The position numbers and the translations under genes were made by a program. The notes under the pieces are model-generated. The model did not search any database. It saw only the letters and a program-made list of their open reading frames with translations, and was not told where the DNA came from. 64,000 bases of DNA from Candidatus Aminicenantes bacterium (lineage in GTDB: Bacteria; Acidobacteriota; Aminicenantia; Aminicenantales; Aminicenantaceae). The stretch covers positions 3,116-67,115 of the forward strand of contig JASFPP010000001.1 in the NCBI GenBank assembly GCA_050115915.1, given 5' to 3'. Of this stretch, positions 11,629 to 63,899 are shown piece by piece (position 1 is the stretch's first letter; the number at the start of each line of letters is the position of its first letter).

Positions 11629-13515
11629 TCAATCCATGTAGCGGTTGTACCAGAACTGGAAAATGACAAGCGGCCACAACAACTGCCGGTGGTTGTGTGC
11701 GCCCTGGAGGTGCTCTCCCAGGATTCTTTCGATGGCAGCCGGATTGAAAAATCTGTGCTTGTTTAAATTTTCCGGGGAAAGGACATCCGTGACAAAATCC
11801 TTGAGTTCCTTCCTGATCCAGATGCCCAGGGGAATATCGAAACCGATCTTTTTTCGTGTCAAAATTTCGGGCGGAAGATAGGGGGCCATCGCTTTTTTCA
11901 GGATGTGTTTGGTCGTCAGCCCCTTGAGTTTCAAAGAACTGGGGATGGCCCTGGCATATTCGACGAACGTGTGGTCGAGGAAGGGCACGCGGATCTCCAG
12001 GGAGTTGGCCATGCTCATTCTGTCCGTTTTAACGAGGAGGTCGTCCTGGAGGTAGAGCTTGAGGTCCAGATACCCGATCCGGCTCACAGTGTCATTTGCC
12101 GAACAGTTGTCGAGATGGAAGGAGATGGGAGCGAATACGTCCTGGCTCAATTTTTCATGGACATCGGCCGCAAACAGTTTTTCCCTCTCCGAGGGTCCAT
12201 AAGCCCCCCACCAGATGAAGTTTGCAATTTCAGGAGGATAGTCGATACCCGATATGAATTTTTTAGCTTTGAATTCAAAGCTGAGCCTTTTTCTCGAAGC
12301 AGGAAGGATCTTGACGATGTTTTTAACGAGTCCGTCTCTTATGAACTTCGGCACTTTTCTGTAGAGCCGCGCCACCTGATAGGCTTTGTAGGTGTCATAC
12401 CCGGCGAAGAGCTCGTCCCCACCCTCACCAGCCAGCGCGACTGTGACATACTGACGGGCCAGTTTCGAGATCAAATAAGTGGGGATGACCGATGCATCGG
12501 CCAGCGGCTCATCCATATATTCGATCAGCTTGGGAACCAGTTTTCTCACGAGATTCGACTCCACGACAAATTCCTGGTGGTCGGTCTGGAAGCGGTCGGC
12601 CACGATCTTGGCGTATCCCAGCTCGTTAAACGTCTCCTCTTTGAAGCCAATGGAAAAGGTTTTAATCCTCGTATCCGCCACCTCGCTCATGAGCGCTGTA
12701 ATGGAGCTCGAATCCATCCCCCCGCTCAGGAAAACTCCCAGAGGCACATCGCTGATGAGTCGTCTCTTCACCGATCCTTTCAGCCGCGTGTAGATCTCCT
12801 CCATTATCACGGTTTCGTTTTTTGAGGAACCTAAACCATTGCCCTGTTGGATATCCCAGTATTGTTTGATCTGGACCATTCGATCGTTGACGATCATCAT
12901 ATGTCCTGGCAAGAGTTTTTTTATTCCCTTGAAAATCGTCTGGGGGGCAGGAATGTACTCGAAGCTGAAGAATCGCGACATCCCGTCAAAATCCAGTTCC
13001 CGGGGATAACCGGCCTCGAGGATGGATTTGATCTCGGAGGAAAAAACCAGGGAGTTGTCCGACTGCCAGTAGTGGAGCGGTTTTATCCCCAGCCTGTCCC
13101 TTACGAGAATGAGTGTGTTCGTTTTAAGATTCCAGAGAGCAATGGCGAACATGCCGTTCAACCGGGAGATAAAACTCTCCCCTTCCTCTTCGTAGAGATG
13201 GACGATCACTTCTGTGTCGGACTTTGTGGCGAAAGAGTGCCCCTTCTGGATGAGCTCTTCCCGTAATTCAGGAAAATTGTAGATCTCCCCATTATAGACC
13301 ACCCAGACGCTTTTATCCTCGTTCGCAATGGGCTGGTGTCCTGTAACAAGATCGATGATACTCAGGCGCCGCATCCCTAGAGCGACTTTGTTATCTCTGT
13401 AGTAGCCCTCATCGTCCGGACCACGGTGCGTCATCACAGCGCACATCTTTTTTGTCGTGTCCTCTGCTTCAGGACCCAGGCCGTTGAATCCATAAACGCC
13501 GCAGATGCCGCACAT
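11629..13515 (-). CDS. asnB: Asparagine synthase (glutamine-hydrolysing) family amidotransferase
   Basis: 628 aa. N-terminal nucleophile MCGICGVYG and PP-loop SGGMDSS. Confidence 0.9.
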   Translation of the reverse strand: MCGICGVYGFNGLGPEAEDTTKKMCAVMTHRGPDDEGYYRDNKVALGMRRLSIIDLVTGHQPIANEDKSVWVVYNGEIYNFPELREELIQKGHSFATKSDTEVIVHLYEEEGESFISRLNGMFAIALWNLKTNTLILVRDRLGIKPLHYWQSDNSLVFSSEIKSILEAGYPRELDFDGMSRFFSFEYIPAPQTIFKGIKKLLPGHMMIVNDRMVQIKQYWDIQQGNGLGSSKNETVIMEEIYTRLKGSVKRRLISDVPLGVFLSGGMDSSSITALMSEVADTRIKTFSIGFKEETFNELGYAKIVADRFQTDHQEFVVESNLVRKLVPKLIEYMDEPLADASVIPTYLISKLARQYVTVALAGEGGDELFAGYDTYKAYQVARLYRKVPKFIRDGLVKNIVKILPASRKRLSFEFKAKKFISGIDYPPEIANFIWWGAYGPSEREKLFAADVHEKLSQDVFAPISFHLDNCSANDTVSRIGYLDLKLYLQDDLLVKTDRMSMANSLEIRVPFLDHTFVEYARAIPSSLKLKGLTTKHILKKAMAPYLPPEILTRKKIGFDIPLGIWIRKELKDFVTDVLSPENLNKHRFFNPAAIERILGEHLQGAHNHRQLLWPLVIFQFWYNRYMD

Positions 13516-13590
13516 CGTCTTCCTCTGGTTCCCTAATGTATCTGAACACCGTTAGAATATCAATCCCCAACTCGGAGAGCGGAATTTCTG

Positions 13591-13801
13591 AAACTGTGAC
13601 GGTGATGAATCGCGTCGCGCTTTTGGAAGTTCCAATTGTGTGGTGGAGAAAACCGTATGGAGGGCCGGACGGGCATGGTACATCTCCCCAAGGGAGATGT
13701 GAGGGAGGCCCGGAATCGAGTGAAATTTCCTCGCTGGGGAAATTGAACGTGTTTTCGAAATCAACAATTGGAGCTTTCGGAAAGTCATTCATCACAGTTT
13801 T
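13591..13801 (+). repeat. T1 structured intergenic repeat, copy B (about 211 bp), oriented toward the B12-radical SAM gene
   Basis: Termini AAACTGTGAcggtgATGAAT (13591-) and ATTCATCACAGTTTT (-13801) are inverted repeats with a 5-nt bulge. Core 22-mer at 13635-13656. Perfect 9-bp hairpin ACATCTCCC-caa-GGGAGATGT at 13680-13700. Blocks shared with copies A and D. Confidence 0.8.
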
Positions 13802-13849
13802 GGAAAAGTTAGAGACGCGGAAGGAAAACGTGTGCGGGACATTGAGGTG

Positions 13850-13858
13850 TGGTATAAT
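13850..13858 (+). promoter_or_regulatory. Extended -10 box TGGTATAAT upstream of the B12-radical SAM operon
   Basis: TGnTATAAT match exactly 48 nt after the T1-B terminus, the same spacing as at T1-A. It lies 29 nt upstream of the TTG start at 13888. Confidence 0.45.
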
Positions 13859-13887
13859 TTGAGCCAAATTTTAAACGGACTGTTATT

Positions 13888-25385: not shown

Positions 25386-25416
25386 TATATCACATTCACC
25401 ACTTTAACGTAAATAG

Positions 25417-25611
25417 GCTGAATTATTCATAAAAGTTGCTGCCAAATTCCTATTTAAAAAAATATTTCATTTCATATTGGCAGCATCTTTTACCTTACAG
25501 GCGAGCTGATTTTGCCGCATCTGCTTCGTTACGGCCCATTCGAAGTGGACGGCCACGTCTTCATACGCCGACGCCTTGCATCTGCGACAAACTCAACTCG
25601 TGAATAATCCA
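25417..25611 (-). repeat. T2 structured intergenic repeat, full copy F1 (about 195 bp), oriented toward the GT2 gene at 25385
   Basis: The reverse complement aligns with copy E. It shares the identical GGATTATTCACGAG (25597-25610 as reverse complement), TCGCCnnnARGGTAAAAG and CTTTTATGAWTAATTCAG. Internal hairpins are 25431-25445/25477-25491 (14 of 15 bp) and 25502-25519/25583-25600 (17 of 18 including 2 G-U on the minus-strand transcript). Confidence 0.75.
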
Positions 25612-25618
25612 TCCTTCG

Positions 25619-25690
25619 CCTGAATTATTCATAAAATCTGTGGTCAAATTCCTATACAAAAATCATTTCTTATCGATAGCATCTTTTACC
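25619..25690 (-). repeat. T2 repeat, partial tandem copy F2 (terminal palindrome plus degenerate P3 arm)
   Basis: CCTGAATTATTCATAAAA...ATCTTTTACC parallels F1 positions 25417-25494, including a similar loop (AAATTCCTAT..). The second hairpin and distal terminus are missing. Confidence 0.6.
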
Positions 25691-26251: not shown

Positions 26252-27061
26252 ATGGATAATCCAGATAAAATGGCGAACCTGTGGACGCGTTGCAACAGTT
26301 GCCGTCGCATTCTCTATAAACAAGATATCCTGGACAACCTCTATGTCTGCCCTGAGTGCTTTTTCCATTTTCGCATGTCTGCGAAAGACCGCCTATCCAT
26401 ACTCTTTGATGAAGGAAGATATGAACTTTTCGATGAAGCCATCTCTCCAGAGGATCCTTTGAATTTCAAAGATCAGAAAGCCTATTCCAGCCGTCTTAAA
26501 GAGAACAAGGGAAAGACCTCGCTTCCCGATGCTGTGCTCAATGCCATCGGAACCATGGATGGCCTGAGTGTCGTTGTTTCAGCCATGGAGTTTTCCTTCA
26601 TGGGTGGGAGCATGGGATCTGTTGTGGGAGAGAAGATCACACGCGCGTTCGAGAAGGCTCTCTCGGAAAAGATTCCTGTTATCGTTATTTCCTGTTCAGG
26701 GGGGGCAAGGATGCAGGAGGGCGTTCTCTCCCTCATGCAGCTCATGAAAACAAGCGCAGCGGTCGCCAGACTCGATGATGCGGGGATTCCGTACATCTCT
26801 GTAATGACAGATCCCACAACGGGTGGAGTTACGGCGAGCTTCGCCATGCTGGGCGATATCAACATCGCAGAGCCAGATGCTCTCATCGGCTTTGCAGGGC
26901 CCCGAGTTATAGAGCAGACAATCAAGGAGAAATTGCCAAGGGACTTTCAACGCTCTGAATTCTTGCTCAGCCACGGCATGCTCGATGAAGTTGTTAAGCG
27001 CCTCCACCTGCGAGACTATCTCATCCGGGCGCTCAGGCTTTTCCTCGACAAACCTCAATGA
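26252..27061 (+). CDS. accD: Acetyl-CoA carboxylase carboxyltransferase subunit beta
   Basis: 269 aa. N-terminal zinc ribbon CNSCRRILY...CPECFFHFRMSAKDRL, plus GGSMG and GGARMQEG motifs. Confidence 0.9.
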   Translation: MDNPDKMANLWTRCNSCRRILYKQDILDNLYVCPECFFHFRMSAKDRLSILFDEGRYELFDEAISPEDPLNFKDQKAYSSRLKENKGKTSLPDAVLNAIGTMDGLSVVVSAMEFSFMGGSMGSVVGEKITRAFEKALSEKIPVIVISCSGGARMQEGVLSLMQLMKTSAAVARLDDAGIPYISVMTDPTTGGVTASFAMLGDINIAEPDALIGFAGPRVIEQTIKEKLPRDFQRSEFLLSHGMLDEVVKRLHLRDYLIRALRLFLDKPQ

Positions 27062-28377
27062 ATTATGAGCAATGCCTCGTTTATCTGGACCAGATACAGA
27101 ACCTGGGCATAAAATTCGGGCTGGATAATGTTCAAACGATCCTGTCCGCCTTGAACAATCCCCAGAATCATTATCCTTCGGTTCACGTGGCCGGGACCAA
27201 CGGAAAAGGCTCGGTGTGTGCCATGCTGAGTTTTATCCTCATGGAACACGGCCTCCGTCCTGGACTCTTTACTTCCCCCCATCTTGTGACTGTGCGGGAG
27301 CGCATCCAGATAGCAGGAGAGCCCATCTCCAAAGAGGATTTTAGCCGGCTTCTTACCGTCCTTAGGGATGTGATCGAAGAGCTTATCGCCTCGCAGGTGC
27401 TGTTGGCCCCACCTACATATTTCGAGATGTTGAGCTGCCTGGCCTTTCTGTATTTTGCCGAAGTGCAGACAGATATCGCCATATTGGAAGTGGGGATGGG
27501 AGGGCGGTTCGACGCCACGAACGTTGTTGTACCCGTAGTTGCGGCTATTACCACCATCTCTCCCGAGCATCAGAAGTTTCTCGGTGAGACTCCAAGCGAG
27601 ATCGCTTCGGAAAAGGCCGGGATCATCAAGCCCGGCGTCCCTCTGGTATGTGGAGTCGAAGAGAAGGACGCGTATAAAACCATAAAGAATAAGGCGAAGG
27701 AACAGAATGCTCCTTTCCATCCGGTGTTTGCCAAAGACAAAGATCTAAAGAAGACAAAAACCGGCCGGAACTTCCGGTTTGTGTACAGATCGGGGCGAGA
27801 GGAATACGCGTTCGCGCCCTCTATGCTCGGAGAACACCAGGGAAAAAATGGGGCCATCGCCATTGCTGTGGCGCATAGACTATCCAAAGATTGGAGGCCA
27901 TTGGAAAGATCGCGGATTATCCGGGGAATCGATGCGGCCTATTGGCCTGGTCGTCTTGAGGTTGTATCCGATAGACCTCTTGTCCTTGTCGATGGCGCAC
28001 ACAATGAGGAGGGAGCGAAGGCTCTGAAAGCTTACGTCCAGGAGTTCATCTCTTTACCCTGCGTGCTTGTCTTCGCGGTCATGAGAGATAAGGACATCGC
28101 TAAACTGTCCGAGATTCTCTTTCCCCTGGCTGACAAGGTGATTTGCACCAGGTTTCCTTACTTCAAGGCCGCTTCACCCGAAGATATCCAAAAACAGGCC
28201 TCTCGATTTGAAGGCCGGATTGTTGTCGAACCGGATGTGGAGAAGGCAGTCAGGGCCGCTCTTCAAGCCGCAAAATCCGAGGGCACTGTCCTTGTGGCGG
28301 GATCCCTCTTTCTCGTCGGCGAGATCAAGAGAATATTTGCAGGCCATGCGGACATTTCCCAATCAGTGCTGTCATAG
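27058..28377 (+). CDS. folC: Bifunctional folylpolyglutamate synthase / dihydrofolate synthase
   Basis: 439 aa. P-loop VHVAGTNGKGS. Mur-ligase family layout. ATGA overlap with accD; accD-folC linkage is known from E. coli. Confidence 0.9.
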   Translation: MNYEQCLVYLDQIQNLGIKFGLDNVQTILSALNNPQNHYPSVHVAGTNGKGSVCAMLSFILMEHGLRPGLFTSPHLVTVRERIQIAGEPISKEDFSRLLTVLRDVIEELIASQVLLAPPTYFEMLSCLAFLYFAEVQTDIAILEVGMGGRFDATNVVVPVVAAITTISPEHQKFLGETPSEIASEKAGIIKPGVPLVCGVEEKDAYKTIKNKAKEQNAPFHPVFAKDKDLKKTKTGRNFRFVYRSGREEYAFAPSMLGEHQGKNGAIAIAVAHRLSKDWRPLERSRIIRGIDAAYWPGRLEVVSDRPLVLVDGAHNEEGAKALKAYVQEFISLPCVLVFAVMRDKDIAKLSEILFPLADKVICTRFPYFKAASPEDIQKQASRFEGRIVVEPDVEKAVRAALQAAKSEGTVLVAGSLFLVGEIKRIFAGHADISQSVLS

Positions 28378-28386
28378 ATCCATGCA

Positions 28387-28542
28387 CGCGGTACGGGATG
28401 TCCTCATTGTTTAATGGAGAAAACCGTTTGAAGGGATAAACGGGCGCGTGGCGTCGCCCATGGGAGGTGCCCCATGTTTGAAGGAAGTTACTTCGCAGGG
28501 GAAAGGGATCGGAATTTCGTTTTCGATATCATACTACAGGGG
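28387..28542 (+). repeat. T1 structured intergenic repeat, copy D (shorter, about 156 bp), oriented toward the atp operon
   Basis: ATTGTTTAATGGAGAAAACCGT (18 of 22 match to the A/B core), CTTCGCAGGGGAAAGG and CGTTTTCGATATCA blocks occur in the same order as in A and B. The termini are degenerate, so the boundaries are approximate. Confidence 0.6.
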
Positions 28543-28597
28543 CACTTGAGATAACCGTGGATCTGATTTGGTTTTGCGAGGGACTTTGGAAGTTGGG

Positions 28598-28626
28598 TTG
28601 CATTTTAGTGTGATAAGTGTTAAATT
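28598..28626 (+). promoter_or_regulatory. Sigma70-type promoter TTGCAT-N17-TAAATT upstream of the atp operon
   Basis: TTGCAT at 28598-28603 and TAAATT at 28621-28626, about 40 nt upstream of the ATG at 28667. Confidence 0.45.
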
Positions 28627-30190: not shown

Positions 30191-31711
30191 ATGGATTTAA
30201 AAGCCGACGAAATATCAAAAATCATACAACGCCAGATCGAGGGTTATGAAACAGGTGTAGATATCAAAGAGGTGGGTACGGTCACTTCTGTAGGGGACGG
30301 TATTGCCAACGTTTATGGACTGGACCACGTGATGTATAACGAACTTTTGGAATTCCCGAACGATGTCTATGGCCTTGCGCTCAACTTGGAGGAAGAGAAT
30401 GTGGGAGCGGTCCTTCTGGGAGAAAGCCATCTCATCAAGGAGGGCGATCTTGTCAAGAGAACGCACAGAATCATGCAAGTGCCCTCGGGGCCTGCTCTTG
30501 TTGGCCGTGTTGTCAATCCTCTGGGGATCCCCCTCGATGAAAAAGGCCCGATTCAGAGCGATGTCAATATGGTTGTCGAGCGTCTTGCTCCTGGAGTTGT
30601 CGAACGCCTTCCCGTTAAGGAACCCCTGCAGACAGGGATCAAAGCGATAGACAGTATGATCCCGATCGGGCGAGGACAGAGGGAGCTGATCATCGGGGAC
30701 CGTCAGACCGGAAAAACAGCGATCGCCATCGATACCATCATCAACCAAAAGGGAAAAGACGTCGTCTGTATATATGTCGCCATCGGGCAAAAAAACTCGA
30801 CCATTGCTTACATTATCAAGGTGCTCGAGGACTACGGAGCCATGGATTATTCGATCATCGTGGCTGCCGCGGCCAGCGATCCTTCCCCGCTTCAGTATCT
30901 GGCCCCCTACAGCGGTTGCGCCATGGGCGAATATTTTCGAGATAACGGGCAGCATTCGCTTCTTGTCTATGACGACCTCTCTAAGCATGCCGCCGCCTAC
31001 AGGGAGATCTCACTCCTCTTGCGGCGCCCTCCCGGGCGAGAGGCGTATCCCGGAGATGTGTTCTATCTTCATTCGCGGCTGCTGGAGAGAGCGGCCAAGC
31101 TCAACGAACAGAACGGCGAGGGATCGCTCACAGCGCTCCCCATCATCGAAACGCAGGCTGGAGATGTCTCGGGTTATATTCCGACAAATGTGATATCCAT
31201 CACCGACGGACAGATCTACCTCGAGCCCGAATTGTTCAATGCCGGCATCAGGCCAGCCATCAATGTGGGGATATCCGTTTCCAGGGTGGGTGGCAATGCG
31301 CAGATCAAAGCGATGAAACAGGTGGCAGGAAAGCTGCGTTTGGACCTGGCCCAATACAGAGAGCTCGTCACTTTTGCACAGTTCGGCACCGAATTGGATA
31401 AGTCGAGCCAAGCGCAGCTCGATAGAGGAGAAAGATTGACAGAGATCTTAAAGCAGGACCAGTACGTTCCCCTGGATGTCGTCAAGCAGATCTTGATCAT
31501 TTTTGCAGGGAATAGAGGTTATCTGGATGAATTCGGAGTTTCCCAGCTCCGTCTTTATGAAAGCAAACTTTACGATTATTTTAACGAAAATTATCCCGAT
31601 CTGCTGCGGAAAATCAAAGAGACAAGGGCTATTGATGCTGACGCGGACGAAGCTCTCAGTTCGGCCTTCGAGGAATTCAACAAGACGTTCAAGGAAGATG
31701 GAGGAGAATAG
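30191..31711 (+). CDS. atpA: F-type ATP synthase subunit alpha
   Basis: 506 aa. Walker A GDRQTGKT, plus the conserved SVSRVGG..AQ and [26 protein letters not shown] segments. Confidence 0.95.
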
Positions 31712-32605
31712 ATGCCGGCTCTGATAGACCTGCGGAAGCGTATCAAAAGCGTGCGCAACACGCAACAGATAACGCAGGCCATGAAAACGGTGTCCACCGT
31801 CAAGTTCCAGAAGGCACAGCGGATCGTCTTGGAGTCGAGGCCCATGTGGCACGACTTCCCTGATCTTGTCTCCAGCGCTGCGCTCTGGGCGCCTTCCACC
31901 GCTCATCCTCTGCTCTCTCGAAGGGAAGAAAAGAAAGTCGTGGGGCTCGTTATCACATCGGACAAAGGATTGGCCGGTGCCTTCAACGCCAATCTTTTAG
32001 AGAAGGCCTCATCCTTTTTCGCAGAGAAGGCAAGGACGAGTGAGGTCCAACTTATACTCGTCGGTAAAAAAGCCGTCGATTTTTTTAAAAAGTCCGCGTA
32101 CCGAGTGCTCCGATCCTATTTCGGACAAGTTCATAAAACCACAGCCGAGGATTGCCGCACATTGGCTCGGTATCTCACTGATCTTTACACGCTGAATAAG
32201 ACCGATACGATTTACGTGGCCTATAATGAATTTAAATCCATCCTCGCTCCCCGTGTGGTTATCACAAAATTACTTCCTGTTGAGTTTTCAGGGGAGGATC
32301 AAAGATCAGAAGATACAGGAGGAGATACAAGTCCATCGGGACAGCGTCCGGATTGGGATCCCTCAGCACTCATGCTGGTCCAAACGCTCCTCCTCCACCA
32401 TGTGGAGAACCAAATGGTCCATTTTTTCTTCGAATCGCAAGCCGCCGAGCACGCAGCAAGGATGATGGCCATGGATAATGCCACAAAAAATGCGGAGGAG
32501 CTGATCGAAGATCTCACACTGGTGTTGAATAAAATCAGGCAGGCATCGATCACAAAAGAGCTTCTGGAGATCATGTCTGCTGTTGAAGCCTTAGCGAAGA
32601 AATAG
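31712..32605 (+). CDS. atpG: F-type ATP synthase subunit gamma
   Basis: 297 aa. N-terminal LRKRIKSVRNTQQITQAMKTVS and C-terminal NKIRQASITKELLEI signatures. Confidence 0.9.
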   Translation: MPALIDLRKRIKSVRNTQQITQAMKTVSTVKFQKAQRIVLESRPMWHDFPDLVSSAALWAPSTAHPLLSRREEKKVVGLVITSDKGLAGAFNANLLEKASSFFAEKARTSEVQLILVGKKAVDFFKKSAYRVLRSYFGQVHKTTAEDCRTLARYLTDLYTLNKTDTIYVAYNEFKSILAPRVVITKLLPVEFSGEDQRSEDTGGDTSPSGQRPDWDPSALMLVQTLLLHHVENQMVHFFFESQAAEHAARMMAMDNATKNAEELIEDLTLVLNKIRQASITKELLEIMSAVEALAKK

Positions 32606-34471
<1,866 letters not shown>

Positions 34472-34485
<14 letters not shown>

Positions 34486-35224
34486 CCAACTAAAGGGTGA
34501 AGACGAAACTCTTGATACCTTCTACCATGGACGCATCCGTGTCTTTCAGAAAAAGAAGGGATACCGGTTTTCCATCGATGCACCTCTTCTCGCAGACTTT
34601 ATCCAGACAAAGGAAACGGACAGAATCCTGGAATTGGGGACAGGAAACGGGATTGTATCGCTGCTCTTGAGTATCAAGCCTTTCTCAAGCTTGACAGCTG
34701 TGGAGATCCAAGCATCTTTGGCAGATCTAGCCAGAAGGAATGTCAGACTCAACAACTGTGAAGACAGGATCCATGTTATCCACACCGATCTCCGTGTTTT
34801 TTCTGAGAGAGAGAAATATGATGTGGTGTTTTCCAATCCGCCTTACATAAAACGAAACACAGGGCACTTGAGCGAATCGGACGAGAAGTCCGTGGCAAAA
34901 CATGAGTTAAAATGCACTATTTCTGATATAATGCAGAAAACTGAAGAATTATTGGCAACGCAGGGAGTGGCTTATTATATCTATCCTGCAACGAGAGAAA
35001 AGGATTTTATGCGAACGATGGAAGAGATGCAGTTGAGGATTCGGAACATCCGCTATGTCTATCCCCAAAAAGGCAGCGCTCCCAATTTTTTTCTTGTGAG
35101 CATGGACTTTGACTCTCTGGGGGCCCAAAAGCTGCGCCCGCTTATCCTGTATGAAAAAAAAGGCGATTACACCGCTGAAGCGCAGGAAATATTCACGGGA
35201 AGGATCCATGATCCGGCTGATTAA
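34472..35224 (+). CDS. N6-adenine-type SAM methyltransferase (TrmN6/YfiC-like, NPPY motif)
   Basis: FQKKKGYRFSIDAPLLADF, ILELGTGNGIVS and FSNPPY motifs. The ATG at 34472 (MSLDDQ..) is the likely start; the ORF track start is 34448. Confidence 0.75.
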
Positions 35225-36029
35225 GAACCTGGTGAGCCTGTACAAGTACAGGGTTCTCATCCAAAACCTCGTGAGCCGCGAATTGAAAGCCCGCTATCGG
35301 GGAACGGTGTTGGGATTCTTTTGGTCTTTTTTTAATCCGTTCCTTTTGCTCGTCGTCTACACGGTTGTGTTCGGTTTTATCATCATGCCCAGAGATCCTG
35401 CTTTCGAGGGCTCGCCCTGGTTGTATGCGCTCTTCCTCTTCTGTGGGTTGCTCCCCTGGCAAGTCTGGTTCGTTGCCTCGTCCCTCGAATCGGCAAATGT
35501 GCTGATCATACAGGGAAATCTGATAAAGAAGATTCTGTTCCCTGTGGAGATCCTCCCTGTCGTTGTGGTCTCGAGCAATTTTATTCATTTCCTCTTCGGC
35601 CTTCCCATCCTGCTCATTTTTGTTCCGATCCTGGGCGGACACTATTCGCCCTATCTCCTCCTCTTGCCGGTTGTCGTTTTAGTCCATTTTGTATTCACAC
35701 TGGGATTCAGTTTTCTCGTCTCCTCCTTAACAGTGCACTTTAGGGATATCAGGGATATCCTTGCAAATCTCTTGACCTTCTGGTTTTTTGCGACACCCAT
35801 CATCTATCCCATGACCTTTTCAACTGTCCAGGAATCCTCTGTTCTTAAAAATCTCCTCAACCTGAACCCCATGACACACATCATGCAGGGATATCAATAC
35901 TGTGTGTTTTATGGGGATCTTTTTCACTGGAAACGCTTGGGCGTCACCTTTATCGTATCGCTCATTCTGCTGTTCGTCGGATACTCTATCTTTGACAGGC
36001 TGCGGGATTCTTTTCCCGAGGAGGTATAG
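35208..36029 (+). CDS. ABC-2 type polysaccharide/teichoic-acid export permease (Wzm/TagG-like)
   Basis: LVSRELKARYRGTVLGFFWSF signature and 6 hydrophobic segments. The start at ATG 35208 is preceded by GGAAGGA; the ORF track N-terminus from 35109 is an upstream extension. Confidence 0.85.
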   Translation: MIRLIKNLVSLYKYRVLIQNLVSRELKARYRGTVLGFFWSFFNPFLLLVVYTVVFGFIIMPRDPAFEGSPWLYALFLFCGLLPWQVWFVASSLESANVLIIQGNLIKKILFPVEILPVVVVSSNFIHFLFGLPILLIFVPILGGHYSPYLLLLPVVVLVHFVFTLGFSFLVSSLTVHFRDIRDILANLLTFWFFATPIIYPMTFSTVQESSVLKNLLNLNPMTHIMQGYQYCVFYGDLFHWKRLGVTFIVSLILLFVGYSIFDRLRDSFPEEV

Positions 36030-37310
36030 TTGGTTGCCATAGATGTGGATCATGTGACACGCATATATCAGAAGTACTCTGCCCAGCACCGCTTCAAAAC
36101 CTTCAAGAGTGCGATCGTCAAGGGGGATTTTTTCAAGTCCCTCCGACCGGATGAACTCGTCACAGCATTGGATAATGTAAGTTTTCAAGTCGAAAAAGGC
36201 ACCACGTTCGGCGTGATCGGAGAGAATGGCTCGGGGAAGAGCACTCTGCTCAAGGTGATCACCGGAATCGCCAAGCCCACATCCGGCTCTGTGAGTGTCG
36301 ATGGAAAAGTCTCTGCACTCATCGAGCTAGGGGCGGGTTTTCATCCGGAGATCTCAGGGCGGGAGAACATCTTTATAAACGGCATCATGTTGGGTCTTTC
36401 CAAAAAAGAGATCACGGAAAAATTCGACGACATAGTCCGGTTTGCAGAGCTCGAAGAATTCATCGATGCCCCCGTCAAAACATATTCGTCAGGAATGCAT
36501 ATGCGCCTCGGATTTTCCGTCGCCATCAACGTTAATCCCGATATTTTGCTCATCGATGAGGTCCTGGCTGTAGGGGATGCCTCTTTTGTGCCCAAGTGTT
36601 TGGATCGGATCGATGATTTCCGCAGGAGGAAGAAAACCATCCTTTTCGTCAGTCATGATCTATCTACGGTCGAAAAGATTTGCGATCGAGTCGTCTGGTT
36701 AAAGCACGGGAAGATCCAGACGATGGGGGAGCCCAAGCGGGTTGTGGATGCCTATCTCCAGGATGTTGCTGAAAAGCAGGAAGAGGAATTCGAGAGGCGC
36801 CAGCAGGAGGTCGAGGTCGAAGAGAGTTTCGCGGAGGAGCGGAGGGAAAACCGCTGGGGCAAAAGAGAGATCGAGATCAAAAAAGTGAGGCTGAAGGATC
36901 TGGATGGCACCGAGAAACATGTTTATTCCCCTGATGAGGGAATGATTATAGAGATGGATGTCATGGCCTATTCTCGGATCGAGGATTTTGTGTTCGGGAT
37001 CGGAATATACAATCCGAAGGGCATCAGTTGTTACGGGACAAACACACATCTGGAAGAGTTTATACCGCAGATCATCGAAGGGGAGGGCCGCGTCAGCTTT
37101 CGGATAGAAAGGCTCGGCCTCATCAACGGGACCTACTATTTGGATGTAGCCGCGCATAAAAAAGATGGCTACCCCTACGATTATCACCGCAATCTGTATT
37201 CATTCATGATCTCCTCTACCAAAAAGGATGTGGGGATCCTGCGGCCGGAACATTCCTGGGAGTTCTCCTCCAGGATCAAGATCAAGCCCCCCACCGAAAA
37301 GGGAGAGTGA
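36030..37310 (+). CDS. ABC transporter ATP-binding protein (Wzt/TagH-like) with C-terminal glycan-binding-type beta domain
   Basis: 426 aa. Walker A GENGSGKST, signature YSSGMHMRLGF and Walker B LLIDEVL. About 170 aa of extra C-terminal domain. TTG start immediately after the permease stop. Confidence 0.9.
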   Translation: MVAIDVDHVTRIYQKYSAQHRFKTFKSAIVKGDFFKSLRPDELVTALDNVSFQVEKGTTFGVIGENGSGKSTLLKVITGIAKPTSGSVSVDGKVSALIELGAGFHPEISGRENIFINGIMLGLSKKEITEKFDDIVRFAELEEFIDAPVKTYSSGMHMRLGFSVAINVNPDILLIDEVLAVGDASFVPKCLDRIDDFRRRKKTILFVSHDLSTVEKICDRVVWLKHGKIQTMGEPKRVVDAYLQDVAEKQEEEFERRQQEVEVEESFAEERRENRWGKREIEIKKVRLKDLDGTEKHVYSPDEGMIIEMDVMAYSRIEDFVFGIGIYNPKGISCYGTNTHLEEFIPQIIEGEGRVSFRIERLGLINGTYYLDVAAHKKDGYPYDYHRNLYSFMISSTKKDVGILRPEHSWEFSSRIKIKPPTEKGE

Positions 37311-37400
37311 TCAAATTCGAAACAGGAATATTTGCGATGGAGTACGGAAAAATGTTGCAATCGTGCGGGGTATTTGTATAATGTTCGCCAGGAGTTTGTA

Positions 37401-37724
37401 ATGGCCACCAAGAACAAGAAACATGGACGGGAAGCCCATTCGCGGACAGTTGCCAAAGCGATCAGCTGGCGGATCATCGCCACTCTAACGACGATGACGG
37501 CAGTGTATATTTTTACAGGAGAGTGGTTGATCACCATAGGTGTGGGCGTCGTAGAAGTGATCGCGAAGATCACATTTTACTATCTTCATGAAAGGGTGTG
37601 GCACAAAATTTCCTGGGGAAAAGAAAAACATCCCCTCTCTACCATTCCGGTCAAAGGGGAGATCACGCCCGATGACATGGATAAAATCAGGGATCAACTC
37701 CGCGAACTGGGTTACCTTGACTGA
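37401..37724 (+). CDS. DUF2061-like small membrane protein
   Basis: SRTVAKAISWRIIATLTT..ITFYYLHERVWHKISWG resembles the DUF2061 pattern. The ATG at 37401 is preceded by AGGAG. Confidence 0.6.
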   Translation: MATKNKKHGREAHSRTVAKAISWRIIATLTTMTAVYIFTGEWLITIGVGVVEVIAKITFYYLHERVWHKISWGKEKHPLSTIPVKGEITPDDMDKIRDQLRELGYLD

Positions 37725-37804
37725 GATAAAACCAGACTCTTATCAATCATTTCTGGACTTGGCTGAGGGATGAACCGCTAAAGGGAACAAAACTTCTATC
37801 CAAT

Positions 37805-38290
37805 ATGAACACGAAGGTGAAAAAGCTCAGTGAGCTGAAAAAACTCAGGGTGAAATATAAAAAAGAGGGAGAGACGGTCGTTTTTACAAACGGATGTTTC
37901 GATGTGCTTCATAGCGGCCACATCCATCTCTTCAGACAAGCTAAGAAGCGGGGGAATATCCTTATCGTTGCAGTTAACGATGATCTGTCTGTTCGAAAAC
38001 TGAAAGGACCGGCCAGGCCAATTTTCCCGCTCGAGGAACGCTTGGAGGTTCTGGATGCCGTGGAAACCATCGATTACCTGATATCTTTTTCCCAGTCAAC
38101 ACCACGGGAACTCATTCAGGCACTCCTTCCCGATGTGCTTGTTAAGGGGGGGGATTGGAAACCCGATGAAGTTGTGGGGAGGGAAGAGGTGGAGGGGGCG
38201 GGGGGAGAGGTCTTCATTATCCCCTATCTGCCCGGGATATCCTCCTCCGAGATCCTCAGTAAAATAAAAGGCCCGCCGTCTGGATCATAA
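37805..38290 (+). CDS. hldC: D-glycero-beta-D-manno-heptose 1-phosphate adenylyltransferase (RfaE domain II as a standalone protein)
   Basis: 161 aa. Cytidylyltransferase-fold motif VVFTNGCFDVLHSGHIHLF. Its length equals the HldE C-terminal domain. Confidence 0.85.
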   Translation: MNTKVKKLSELKKLRVKYKKEGETVVFTNGCFDVLHSGHIHLFRQAKKRGNILIVAVNDDLSVRKLKGPARPIFPLEERLEVLDAVETIDYLISFSQSTPRELIQALLPDVLVKGGDWKPDEVVGREEVEGAGGEVFIIPYLPGISSSEILSKIKGPPSGS

Positions 38291-39671: not shown

Positions 39672-39762
39672 TTCTCAATCTCCAATAGACATTTCTAGGC
39701 TTGGATTATATTTTTTAAGTGCATTTTTGGCAAGTATTTATAGAGAGTAACGAGTTTCACTC

Positions 39763-39825
39763 AAACCGTGAGGACATGAATTCTCGATGACAGTATTGAG
39801 TAACACAGTGTCTTCTGTCACGGTT
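39763..39825 (+). repeat. T1-related mini element, copy C (terminal inverted repeats only, 63 bp hairpin)
   Basis: AAACCGTGAGGACATGAATTC matches the T1-A terminus (AAACCGTGACGACATGAATTC, 20 of 21). The 3' arm TCACGGTT pairs with the 5' AACCGTGA. The internal core is missing. Confidence 0.45.
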
Positions 39826-39962
39826 CTTGAAAAACATTTAAAGGCACCCCAATTAATGAATTTAAATCCAGGCTAAACCTTTTCGTGATGCGATGCGTTT
39901 ATATAAGGTGATGCCTCAATTAAAGGAATGAGGATGGTTTTTTTCAAGGAGCTGCAAAAATA

Positions 39963-59900: not shown

Positions 59901-60105
59901 GATTCGCTCCATTCGTCCTCTCGTTTTCCCTATGTTAGAGAAATCGTTGATTATGTCAATGTTTATGTGCAGCTTTCCCGAAACCGGGCTTACGGACATT
60001 GCGGAAGCCTCAACCGGCGATTTTAAAACTGAAATTCCCTTCAGTTTTCAAAGTCCCCTAAAAATGTGATAGAATAACGGTCACAAGATTAGCTCGAGGA
60101 TCACT

Positions 60106-62805: not shown

Positions 62806-62890
62806 GTTTCTGAGCGTCATGAATCGACGAGGCGTTTGGATTGGATAATGGTTTGCTGTTTAAATAGAGTGAAATTTGGATCATGTCTTG
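62806..62890 (+). repeat. Possible degenerate, internally deleted T1 copy G upstream of pgeF
   Basis: GCGTCATGAATCGACGAGGCGTTTGGATTGG parallels the T1-B 5' end (GGTGATGAATCGCGTCGCGCTTTTGGAAGTT). It also shares the identical 11-mer GAGTGAAATTT (62867-62877) with B. The rest of the core is missing. Confidence 0.3.
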
Positions 62891-63670: not shown

Positions 63671-63899
63671 TCCTGGATTATTCACGAGCCGAGGCCAACC
63701 CACCCCACCCATTCACAAAGGTAGAGGCAGTGGCTTCCGAAGCAGCAGTGAACTACCACGAGGGGGCTACAACGAAGGCTTTGTAGTGAGATCGGTTCGC
63801 CCGAAGGGTAAAAGAAGCTAACAACAGGATGGGGAGTTTTCCTTTCAGATAAGTCTTTCTTAAATATATTTGTTAGCTTCTTTTATGATTAATTCAGGA
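63671..63899 (+). repeat. T2 structured intergenic repeat, full copy E (about 229 bp), oriented toward the gene starting at 63950
   Basis: The termini CCTGGATTATTCA / TGATTAATTCAGG pair (12 of 13 including 1 G-U). Perfect 14-bp hairpin AAAAGAAGCTAACA (63810-63823) / TGTTAGCTTCTTTT (63871-63884). Basal stem CGAGCCGA (63685-63692) / TCGGTTCG (63792-63799). Junction sequences are conserved with copy F1. Confidence 0.75.

Follow-up and report, generated by a model that had tools for sequence, protein, structure and literature searches.

T1, a 236-bp miniature inverted-repeat transposable element of Aminicenantes, probably moved by an ISKra4-like transposase that inserts upstream of promoters

The 64,000-nucleotide stretch of Candidatus Aminicenantes DNA analysed here (the window; contig JASFPP010000001.1, positions 3,116 to 67,115) contains several copies of a structured intergenic repeat, T1, which a first-pass annotation had described from the sequence alone. 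[quoted passage not shown] The explanation to which a probability of about 0.9 is attached is that T1 is a 236-bp Aminicenantes MITE moved by an ISKra4-like transposase that inserts upstream of promoters. Together with its partner insertion sequence (IS), T1 forms a previously undescribed MITE family in Aminicenantes, which works like the known promoter-targeting p-MULT elements. The traits of a MITE are all present: T1 is short and non-coding, with terminal inverted repeats (TIRs), a target-site duplication (TSD) of fixed length, dispersed copies with presence/absence polymorphism, and ends in common with a transposase-encoding element.

The family extends well beyond the window. A scan by exact pattern, covering a single genome for each species, places T1 at no fewer than 111 loci, all of them in eight metagenome-assembled genomes (MAGs) of Aminicenantes (OP8), and a scan with the TIR alone adds at least 120 further loci in sediment metagenomes; in viral contigs, neither the TIR nor the core has a match. 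Copy counts were de-duplicated because the palindromic element also matches on the reverse strand, which leaves, among the matches listed, 141 distinct copies within 705 kb of MAG loci. The consensus sequence measures 236 nt and is non-coding, its open reading frames (ORFs) being sporadic, non-conserved and created by the element itself. The TIRs of about 26 nt (G[G/T]AAGCATYTCCAAAACCGTGATGG) enclose outer arms, the left of which carries a bulge of 4-5 nt, an inner stem of 14 bp (GAGTGTTCCAATTG / CAATTGGAACACTC) and a non-palindromic core of about 110 nt that contains a 22-mer, a ACATCTCCC-N3-GGGAGATGT hairpin and a TTTCCTCGCTGGGGAAA hairpin. Deletion derivatives occur across the family in 137-bp and 63-88-bp forms; the former are coreless and join consensus positions 2-80 to 172-234, and half-elements cut at consensus position 172 also recur. 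Pairwise divergence between copies is 10-18%, which is estimated to be in line with the decay of their TSDs.

Three MAGs titled 'uncultured Eubacteriales bacterium' (CAZIMJ, CAZXJE and CAYOSH; loci L002, L003, L005 and others) carry dozens of T1 copies. These MAGs share repeats and orthologous insertion sites with the Aminicenantes MAGs, which suggests that the public label is wrong.

Past transposition is recorded in the sequences flanking T1. The TSD is exactly 9 bp: among 38 elements with well-kept ends, the duplication is perfect in 9 and has at most one mismatch in 14, and registers of 7, 8, 10 and 11 bp give zero perfect matches and one near-match in all. For full copies, at least 7 of the 9 TSD positions match in 49 of 98, compared with 2.9% of shuffled left/right pairings. 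A site without the element is also available for comparison, as a contig from Aminicenantes Bin_51 (L055), syntenic with window positions 30581-38256 at about 81% identity, has a 236-bp copy where the window has none:

37339-37382 (+): empty target site in the window, occupied by T1 in L055

The L055 copy lies 16 nt upstream of a promoter that is conserved in both genomes and consists of TTGCAA (37355-37360), a spacer of 16 nt and TATAAT (37377-37382). The promoter was therefore there before the element, as the empty window site has it too. No T1 copy lies inside a genuine gene, and the few ORFs that appear to contain one are artefacts of the element.

Placement relative to promoters is the most regular feature of these insertions. 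With offsets read outward from either element end to the first base of the −35 hexamer, TTGAC is found at offset 15-16 in 20 of 186 flanks against about 0.5 per other offset, and a TAnnnT signal stands 17 nt after it. Scoring of −35 and −10 hexamers gives 55 strong outward promoters, 29 of them with the −35 at offset 14-16, and only 3 promoters that face inward. A strong promoter at offset 14-17 accompanies 28 of 92 copies (30%) and is faced by the left end of the element in 17 copies, by the right end in 10 and by both in 1; after 25 of 26 such promoters an ORF follows within 250 nt, usually in less than 40 nt. The independent metagenome ends, which are exactly defined, have 12 strong promoters at offset 16 and no more than 2 at any other offset. 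Deletion derivatives are represented by a 67-bp mini element (L053:3441-3507), comparable to the mini in the window, which has TTGACA at offset 16.

The first-pass annotation had offered, as one possibility, a MITE-like element carrying or attracting promoters. The MITE part of this proposal is borne out by the TIRs, the 9-bp TSDs, the empty site and the autonomous partner, but the element carries no promoters and the attraction is reversed, T1 being targeted to pre-existing promoters, 16 bp upstream of the −35. The accompanying claim that all copies point to the downstream gene holds in the window and fails across the family, where, among copies with both neighbours called, tandem spacers contain 16 co-oriented and 23 anti-oriented copies, divergent spacers 39 and convergent spacers 6. 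Co-orientation is thus a small-sample impression, and the invariant feature is the distance of the element end to the promoter, on either side.

At many promoters beside T1 the start codon follows the −10 after a mere 1-40 nt, approximately, a hint that mRNAs with a very short leader or none, and with no Shine-Dalgarno sequence, are common in these Aminicenantes.

The partner IS is represented by TIR pairs 1380 bp apart in three independent metagenome contigs (L165, L145 and L171) and by a degraded 1314-bp version in L141. Its terminal 24-27 nt are identical to those of T1, and the two elements have nothing else in common. The IS contains a single ORF of 422 amino acids (aa), at L165:1671-2939 in the first of these contigs, which matches Pfam UPF0236 with 81 bits (cut-off 24.3) and has ISKra4 as its best NCBIfam match (E=1e-48), followed by ISLre2 and ISH6. 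Eight full-length homologues of this transposase are found in metagenome loci at 58-100% aa identity, with homologues in L190, L140, L220, L157 and L154, and the six that were scanned give the same NCBIfam ranking and cover positions 20-422, approximately, of the 422 in the ISKra4 model. On the evidence of these profile matches, membership in the Mutator-type (p-MULT) transposase superfamily is clear. The L141 contig is syntenic with an Aminicenantaceae contig, and the partner IS therefore occurs in this lineage.

Two other sets of loci were considered and rejected. A 3.1-kb TIR pair in L086 consists of a MITE and a solo end that enclose nothing but host genes, MurJ and Dtd, and the half-elements cut at position 172 in L096, L045, L019 and L040, taken as possible ends of a parent IS, are flanked by a thiolase gene, a YggS-like gene and an amino-acid kinase gene. 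In L165, an IS256-family (Transposase_mut) gene is located at 392-1630 (−), and the ISKra4-like IS adjoins and slightly overlaps its start, an arrangement that looks like an IS inserted at another IS.

In the proposed mechanism, the 422-aa transposase would mobilise T1 by acting on the termini that the two elements have in common. Insertion, as the flanks show, duplicates 9 bp of target at the upstream edge of a sigma-70-type promoter, and with the duplicated 9 bp lying 7 bp upstream of the −35, the element end comes to stand 16 bp from it. The near-identity of the two ends allows T1 to present either of them to the promoter. By analogy with TnGBS, the promoter may be recognised through contact of the transposase with promoter-bound RNA polymerase or sigma factor, or through DNA geometry.

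This arrangement closely resembles that of described promoter-targeting elements. In TnGBS, ISLre2 and the ISKra4 group, insertion takes place 13-17 bp upstream of sigmaA promoters, the inverted repeats (IRs) measure 18-39 bp and have a terminal C, and the direct repeats (DRs) are of 8 or 9 bp; near-perfect IRs allow both insertion orientations, which are reported for 13 ISKra4-group ISs, and a signature motif with a conserved Asp between transposase domains N1 and N2 goes with promoter targeting (PMC3942029). As a criterion for elements of this p-MULT kind, over 20% of the insertion sites should have a sigmaA promoter at 13-17 bp from the IR-genome junction. T1 is similar in its IR of 26 bp ending in ...GCTTCC-3′, its 9-bp DR and its 30% of copies with a promoter at the expected distance, a pattern repeated in the metagenome ends, and its partner IS resembles the ISKra4/ISLre2 elements in encoding a single DDE transposase of about 420 aa with best matches to ISKra4, ISLre2 and ISH6. 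Unlike the elements of PMC3942029, T1 is non-autonomous, 236 bp long and without an ORF, has internal sequence unrelated to the IS, and resides in an uncultured phylum, Aminicenantes, that does not figure in that paper's list of phyla; MITEs are mentioned nowhere in the paper (0 occurrences). T1 is likewise similar to the bacterial MITEs Correia/NEMIS, RUP, ERIC and MITEAba12 (reviewed in PMC10969869) in being small, non-coding and high-copy with TIRs and TSDs, in forming a long hairpin, in its mostly intergenic position near gene starts, and in having only its ends in common with the parent IS. Correia elements, however, bring their own promoters and target TA, whereas T1 brings none and is placed with base-pair precision from an existing −35, and the same general MITE review, from 2024, mentions no promoter-measured targeting for a MITE. 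Integration within 1-2 bp of a promoter element is also known for yeast Ty3 (Pol III start sites, TFIIIB/TFIIIC), an analogy drawn in PMC3942029; Ty3, unlike T1, is a eukaryotic retrotransposon with an integrase, and the likeness would be one of mechanism only.

Several observations weigh against an ISKra4-like transposase as the agent that moved T1, or are left unaccounted for by it. The six scanned transposases score 167-190 bits, below the NCBIfam ISKra4 equivalog cut-off of 205, and may constitute a distinct subgroup. Neither the window nor the MAG loci (705 kb) hold a copy of the partner transposase, so that co-residence of MITE and IS in one genome is indicated indirectly, via L141 alone; the first-pass statement that the window holds no transposase is consistent with this result, the partner being present in related metagenome contigs. 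A recognisable TSD is lacking in three of the four IS copies, which may be metagenome mis-joins or rearrangements, and about half of the 98 T1 copies are without a clear TSD. The IS is not the source of the core, and yet the core stays conserved between subfamilies whose arms differ. Finally, the T1 consensus folds about 16 kcal/mol better as plus-strand than as minus-strand RNA, an asymmetry that the transposition model leaves unexplained.

For some T1 copies the two flanks match different loci (L064, L070, L098; L022/L048; L067/L015). Such mosaics could have arisen by recombination between copies or by MAG assembly mis-joins across the 236-bp repeat, and they probably explain part of the approximately 50% of copies without a recognisable TSD.

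For the elements within the window, a hidden Markov model (HMM) of the family was built only from copies in other genomes and searched against the window with nhmmer. It recovers copy B at 13583-13808 (+; E=1e-60, HMM positions 6-231 of 236), copy A at 3088-2857 (−; E=4e-44, positions 9-235), copy D at 28353-28553 (+; E=2e-21, positions 6-207) and, weakly and with filters off (nhmmer --max), a mini element (E=0.11, positions 5-55). Copies A, B and D are homologous, with long ordered blocks in common. Each of the three contains one exact instance of the 13-mer TGGAGAAAACCGT, which has no further occurrence in the window and whose near-match count there is equalled by no shuffle; the block TTCCTCGCWGGGGAAA is likewise shared, and the mini has an exact 19-mer, AAACCGTGANNNNATGAAT, in common with copy A. 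These HMM matches and common blocks establish four of the five copies first proposed, and the fifth, a supposed degenerate copy at 62806-62890, is unsupported, being undetected by the family HMM even with nhmmer --max at E<=50 and having in common with copy B only an 8-mer, estimated at about chance level. A weak HMM match at 59970-60047 (E=0.027) extends over a start codon and seems to be spurious. Among the features described earlier, the 22-mer, the hairpin of 9 bp, the TIRs and the left-arm bulge (acgac in A, cggtg in B) are all present and are all family-wide. The elements are longer than had been drawn, copy B for example having been given as 13591-13801; the extents of A, B and D given here were set by alignment and a check of the ends. 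The elements and the traces of their insertion are:

13578-13813 (+): copy B, a full-length but decayed MITE with left and right arms, inner stem and non-palindromic core of about 110 nt (nhmmer and alignment)
13578-13603 (+): left TIR of copy B, degenerate, AGCGGAATTTCTGAAACTGTGACGGT against consensus GTAAGCATTTCCAAAACCGTGATGGC
13788-13813 (−): right TIR of copy B; no other TIR of the window comes within 5 mismatches of the consensus
13569-13577: left TSD remnant of copy B, AACTCGGAG, with 6/9 matches to the right remnant
13814-13822: right TSD remnant of copy B, GACGCGGAA
2856-3096 (−): copy A, a full-length decayed MITE (nhmmer)
3105-3097 and 2855-2847: TSD remnants of copy A, TTCCCCGAT and GGCCCCGTG respectively, with 5/9 matches, contiguous
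28348-28581 (+): copy D, an old, strongly decayed MITE with core blocks kept and arms almost unrecognisable
about 39752-39839 (+): mini, a deletion derivative with degenerate ends and outer arms only, of which the earlier 39763-39825 is the inner part

The promoters associated with these elements are:

2811-2839 (−): TTGCTT-17-TATAAA, promoter of the GDSL-lipase gene (669-2798, −), 16 nt outward from the right end of copy A; the ATG is 12 nt after the −10
13535-13563 (−): TTGATA-17-TACATT, promoter of the divergent asparagine synthase gene (11629-13515, −), 14 nt outward from the left end of copy B
13830-13858 (+): extended −10 promoter of the radical-SAM gene (13888), with TGnTATAAT at 13850-13858 and, in the −35 slot, the poor match GTGTGC beginning 16 nt outward from the right end of copy B
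28598-28626 (+): TTGCAT-17-TAAATT, promoter of the atp operon (28667 onward), 16 nt outward from the right end of copy D
39705-39733 (−): TTGCCA-17-TATAAT, promoter of the gene for peptidase C26 (38493-39671, −); its −35 starts about 18 nt outward from the left end of the mini, the position of which is uncertain by about 2 nt

All four window elements are judged to fit the promoter rule, with offsets of 16 for A, 14 and 16 for B, 16 for D and about 18 for the mini. The window copies would thus lie just upstream of genes because the transposase inserts there, and their structure is that of any MITE, which is a long imperfect palindrome. They are old relics that no longer move and whose ends are degenerate.

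The element also affects the annotation of coding sequences around it. A 108-aa ORF at 13536-13862 (+) spans copy B as a by-product of the repeat, and ORFs of 105-155 aa similarly span T1 copies in L109, L061 and L084 and could be mis-called as genes. The last approximately 30 nt and the TAG stop (28348-28377) of a FolC-like Mur-ligase gene (27058-28377) come from the left arm of copy D, and the insertion has thus remodelled the C-terminus of a host protein.

The core is the part of T1 that invites a further function. Its 5′ edge, GGAGAAAACCGTGAG, repeats the TIR motif CCAAAACCGTGATG, and its borders are the exact sites of recurrent deletions. Among copies that are otherwise 82-90% identical, the triloop in the central hairpin (consensus 111-114; 13690-13692 in B, 2981-2983 in A) is almost random; it differs even between orthologous insertions (TAT in L089, ATG in L026), which suggests either many master lineages or a hotspot of mutation where a perfect palindrome has its tip. 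That this core, absent from the parent IS, conserved while the arms diverge and markedly better folded as plus-strand RNA, is a functional module, either an RNA or a protein-binding site that aids amplification of the MITE or a sequence co-opted to modulate target promoters, is unlikely; if it were one, T1 would be a vehicle distributing a regulatory device to promoters genome-wide.

A reading in which T1 has been co-opted as a cis-regulatory module is very unlikely. In it, the conserved core, or the ends at about −52 to −80, would serve as a landing pad for a global regulator or for residual transposase, or the element would tune the neighbouring promoter as an insulator or an UP-like element. 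A regulator landing pad, also proposed in the first-pass annotation, is not needed to explain the repeat. The fixed spot just upstream of promoters is indeed where class-I activators and UP elements act, but this position is fully explained by the known target specificity of the transposase, and the core faces the promoter in either orientation. Conservation of the core among subfamilies whose arms diverge, and retention of core blocks in copy D despite its decayed arms, would accord with a regulatory role; against this, the rate of rare variants is uniform at about 0.01 per site over TIRs, arms and core, and orthologous copies diverge about as fast as their flanks. Purifying selection on the core after insertion, considered as a separate proposition, is not supported in view of these same two results. 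The promoter orthologous to that beside the L055 copy, moreover, works without the element, the window site being empty.

A structured non-coding RNA, whether a 5′ leader, a riboswitch-like element or a small RNA, is a highly improbable alternative to the MITE, despite the extent of pairing in T1. The fold of copy B is a long rod (z = −6.2), 97 of 101 copies have a more stable fold on the plus than on the minus strand, with a mean advantage of about 14 kcal/mol, and the central hairpin combines a conserved stem with a free loop. Counted on the consensus minimum free energy structure, 88% of cells retain their pairing and 52 pairs have compensatory changes; the core fold that RNAalifold derives from the full alignment is implausible. 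Copy A, however, has z = −0.6, and the plus-strand advantage is inherited from the master sequence, so that the 97 copies are not independent observations. The covariation is concentrated in the terminal repeats and arms, parts that differ between subfamilies and whose two sides must suit the same transposase, and the core hairpins are nearly invariant and hence uninformative on RNA selection. Departures from the commonest pair, counted as G.T versus A.C, number 177:150 in the TIR, 121:114 in the inner arm and 86:90 in the core; this absence of strand asymmetry in every region is the expectation at the DNA level and gives no sign of selection at the RNA level.

The position of T1 also argues against a transcribed function, as T1 stands upstream of the adjacent promoters' −35 hexamers and is therefore outside those transcripts, and orientation is mixed with respect both to neighbouring genes (16 co- versus 23 anti-oriented) and to the end facing the promoter (17 left versus 10 right). 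Neither the two canonical copies that were scanned nor copy B shows an internal promoter or terminator, T1 has no Rfam match, and Rfam 15 gives 0 matches at the gathering score in the whole window, with only chance-level E-value matches around copy B. With TSDs and an empty site marking T1 as mobile DNA, the shared 5′ leader or small RNA entertained in the first-pass annotation finds no support in position, orientation, Rfam or the G.U/A.C balance. The same annotation had recognised neither a known RNA family nor an IS end, which is correct for the former, while the ends do match those of a UPF0236/ISKra4-like IS.

Derivation of the MITE from an IS66-family element can practically be dismissed: the T1 ends start with G[T/G]AAGCA, measure about 26 bp and resemble the IRs of IS66 (20-30 bp, starting GTAAGCG, with 8-bp DRs; PMC11946415; PMC12888890), but elements with exactly the T1 termini encode an ISKra4/ISLre2-like (UPF0236) transposase and no IS66 domains, the TSD is 9 bp and not 8, and promoter targeting is a p-MULT trait (PMC3942029), so that partner transposase, TSD and target specificity rule out the parentage to which the GTAAGC terminus had falsely pointed.

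A second dispersed repeat, unrelated to T1, is present in the window at 25412-25640 and 63671-63898 and recurs at L015:1759-1976, L089:1580-1794 and at least 10 other loci, with 70-92% identity across many Aminicenantes loci and a unit of about 200 nt. It starts with CTGAATTATTCATAAAAG...TGCTGnCAAA and closes with ...CTCGTGAATAATCCA, its ends being inverted TGAATnATTCA motifs, and at 25418/25620 its first 43 nt recur 202 nt apart. It has no Rfam match and is probably another MITE or structured repeat.

Recognition of T1 as a MITE explains the conspicuous 'structured' intergenic repeats of these genomes and should prevent their mis-annotation as riboswitches, small RNAs or spurious ORFs. Promoter targeting by Mutator-like bacterial transposases, known from TnGBS, ISLre2 and ISKra4, now extends to a non-autonomous MITE and to Aminicenantes. 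The hundreds of natural insertion sites could help to resolve how this transposase family recognises promoters. As well-preserved insertions mark the upstream edges of sigma-70-type promoters to the base pair, they also provide a promoter map for uncultured bacteria, according to which the promoter consensus in these bacteria is TTGACA-17-TATAAT and the leaders are often very short.

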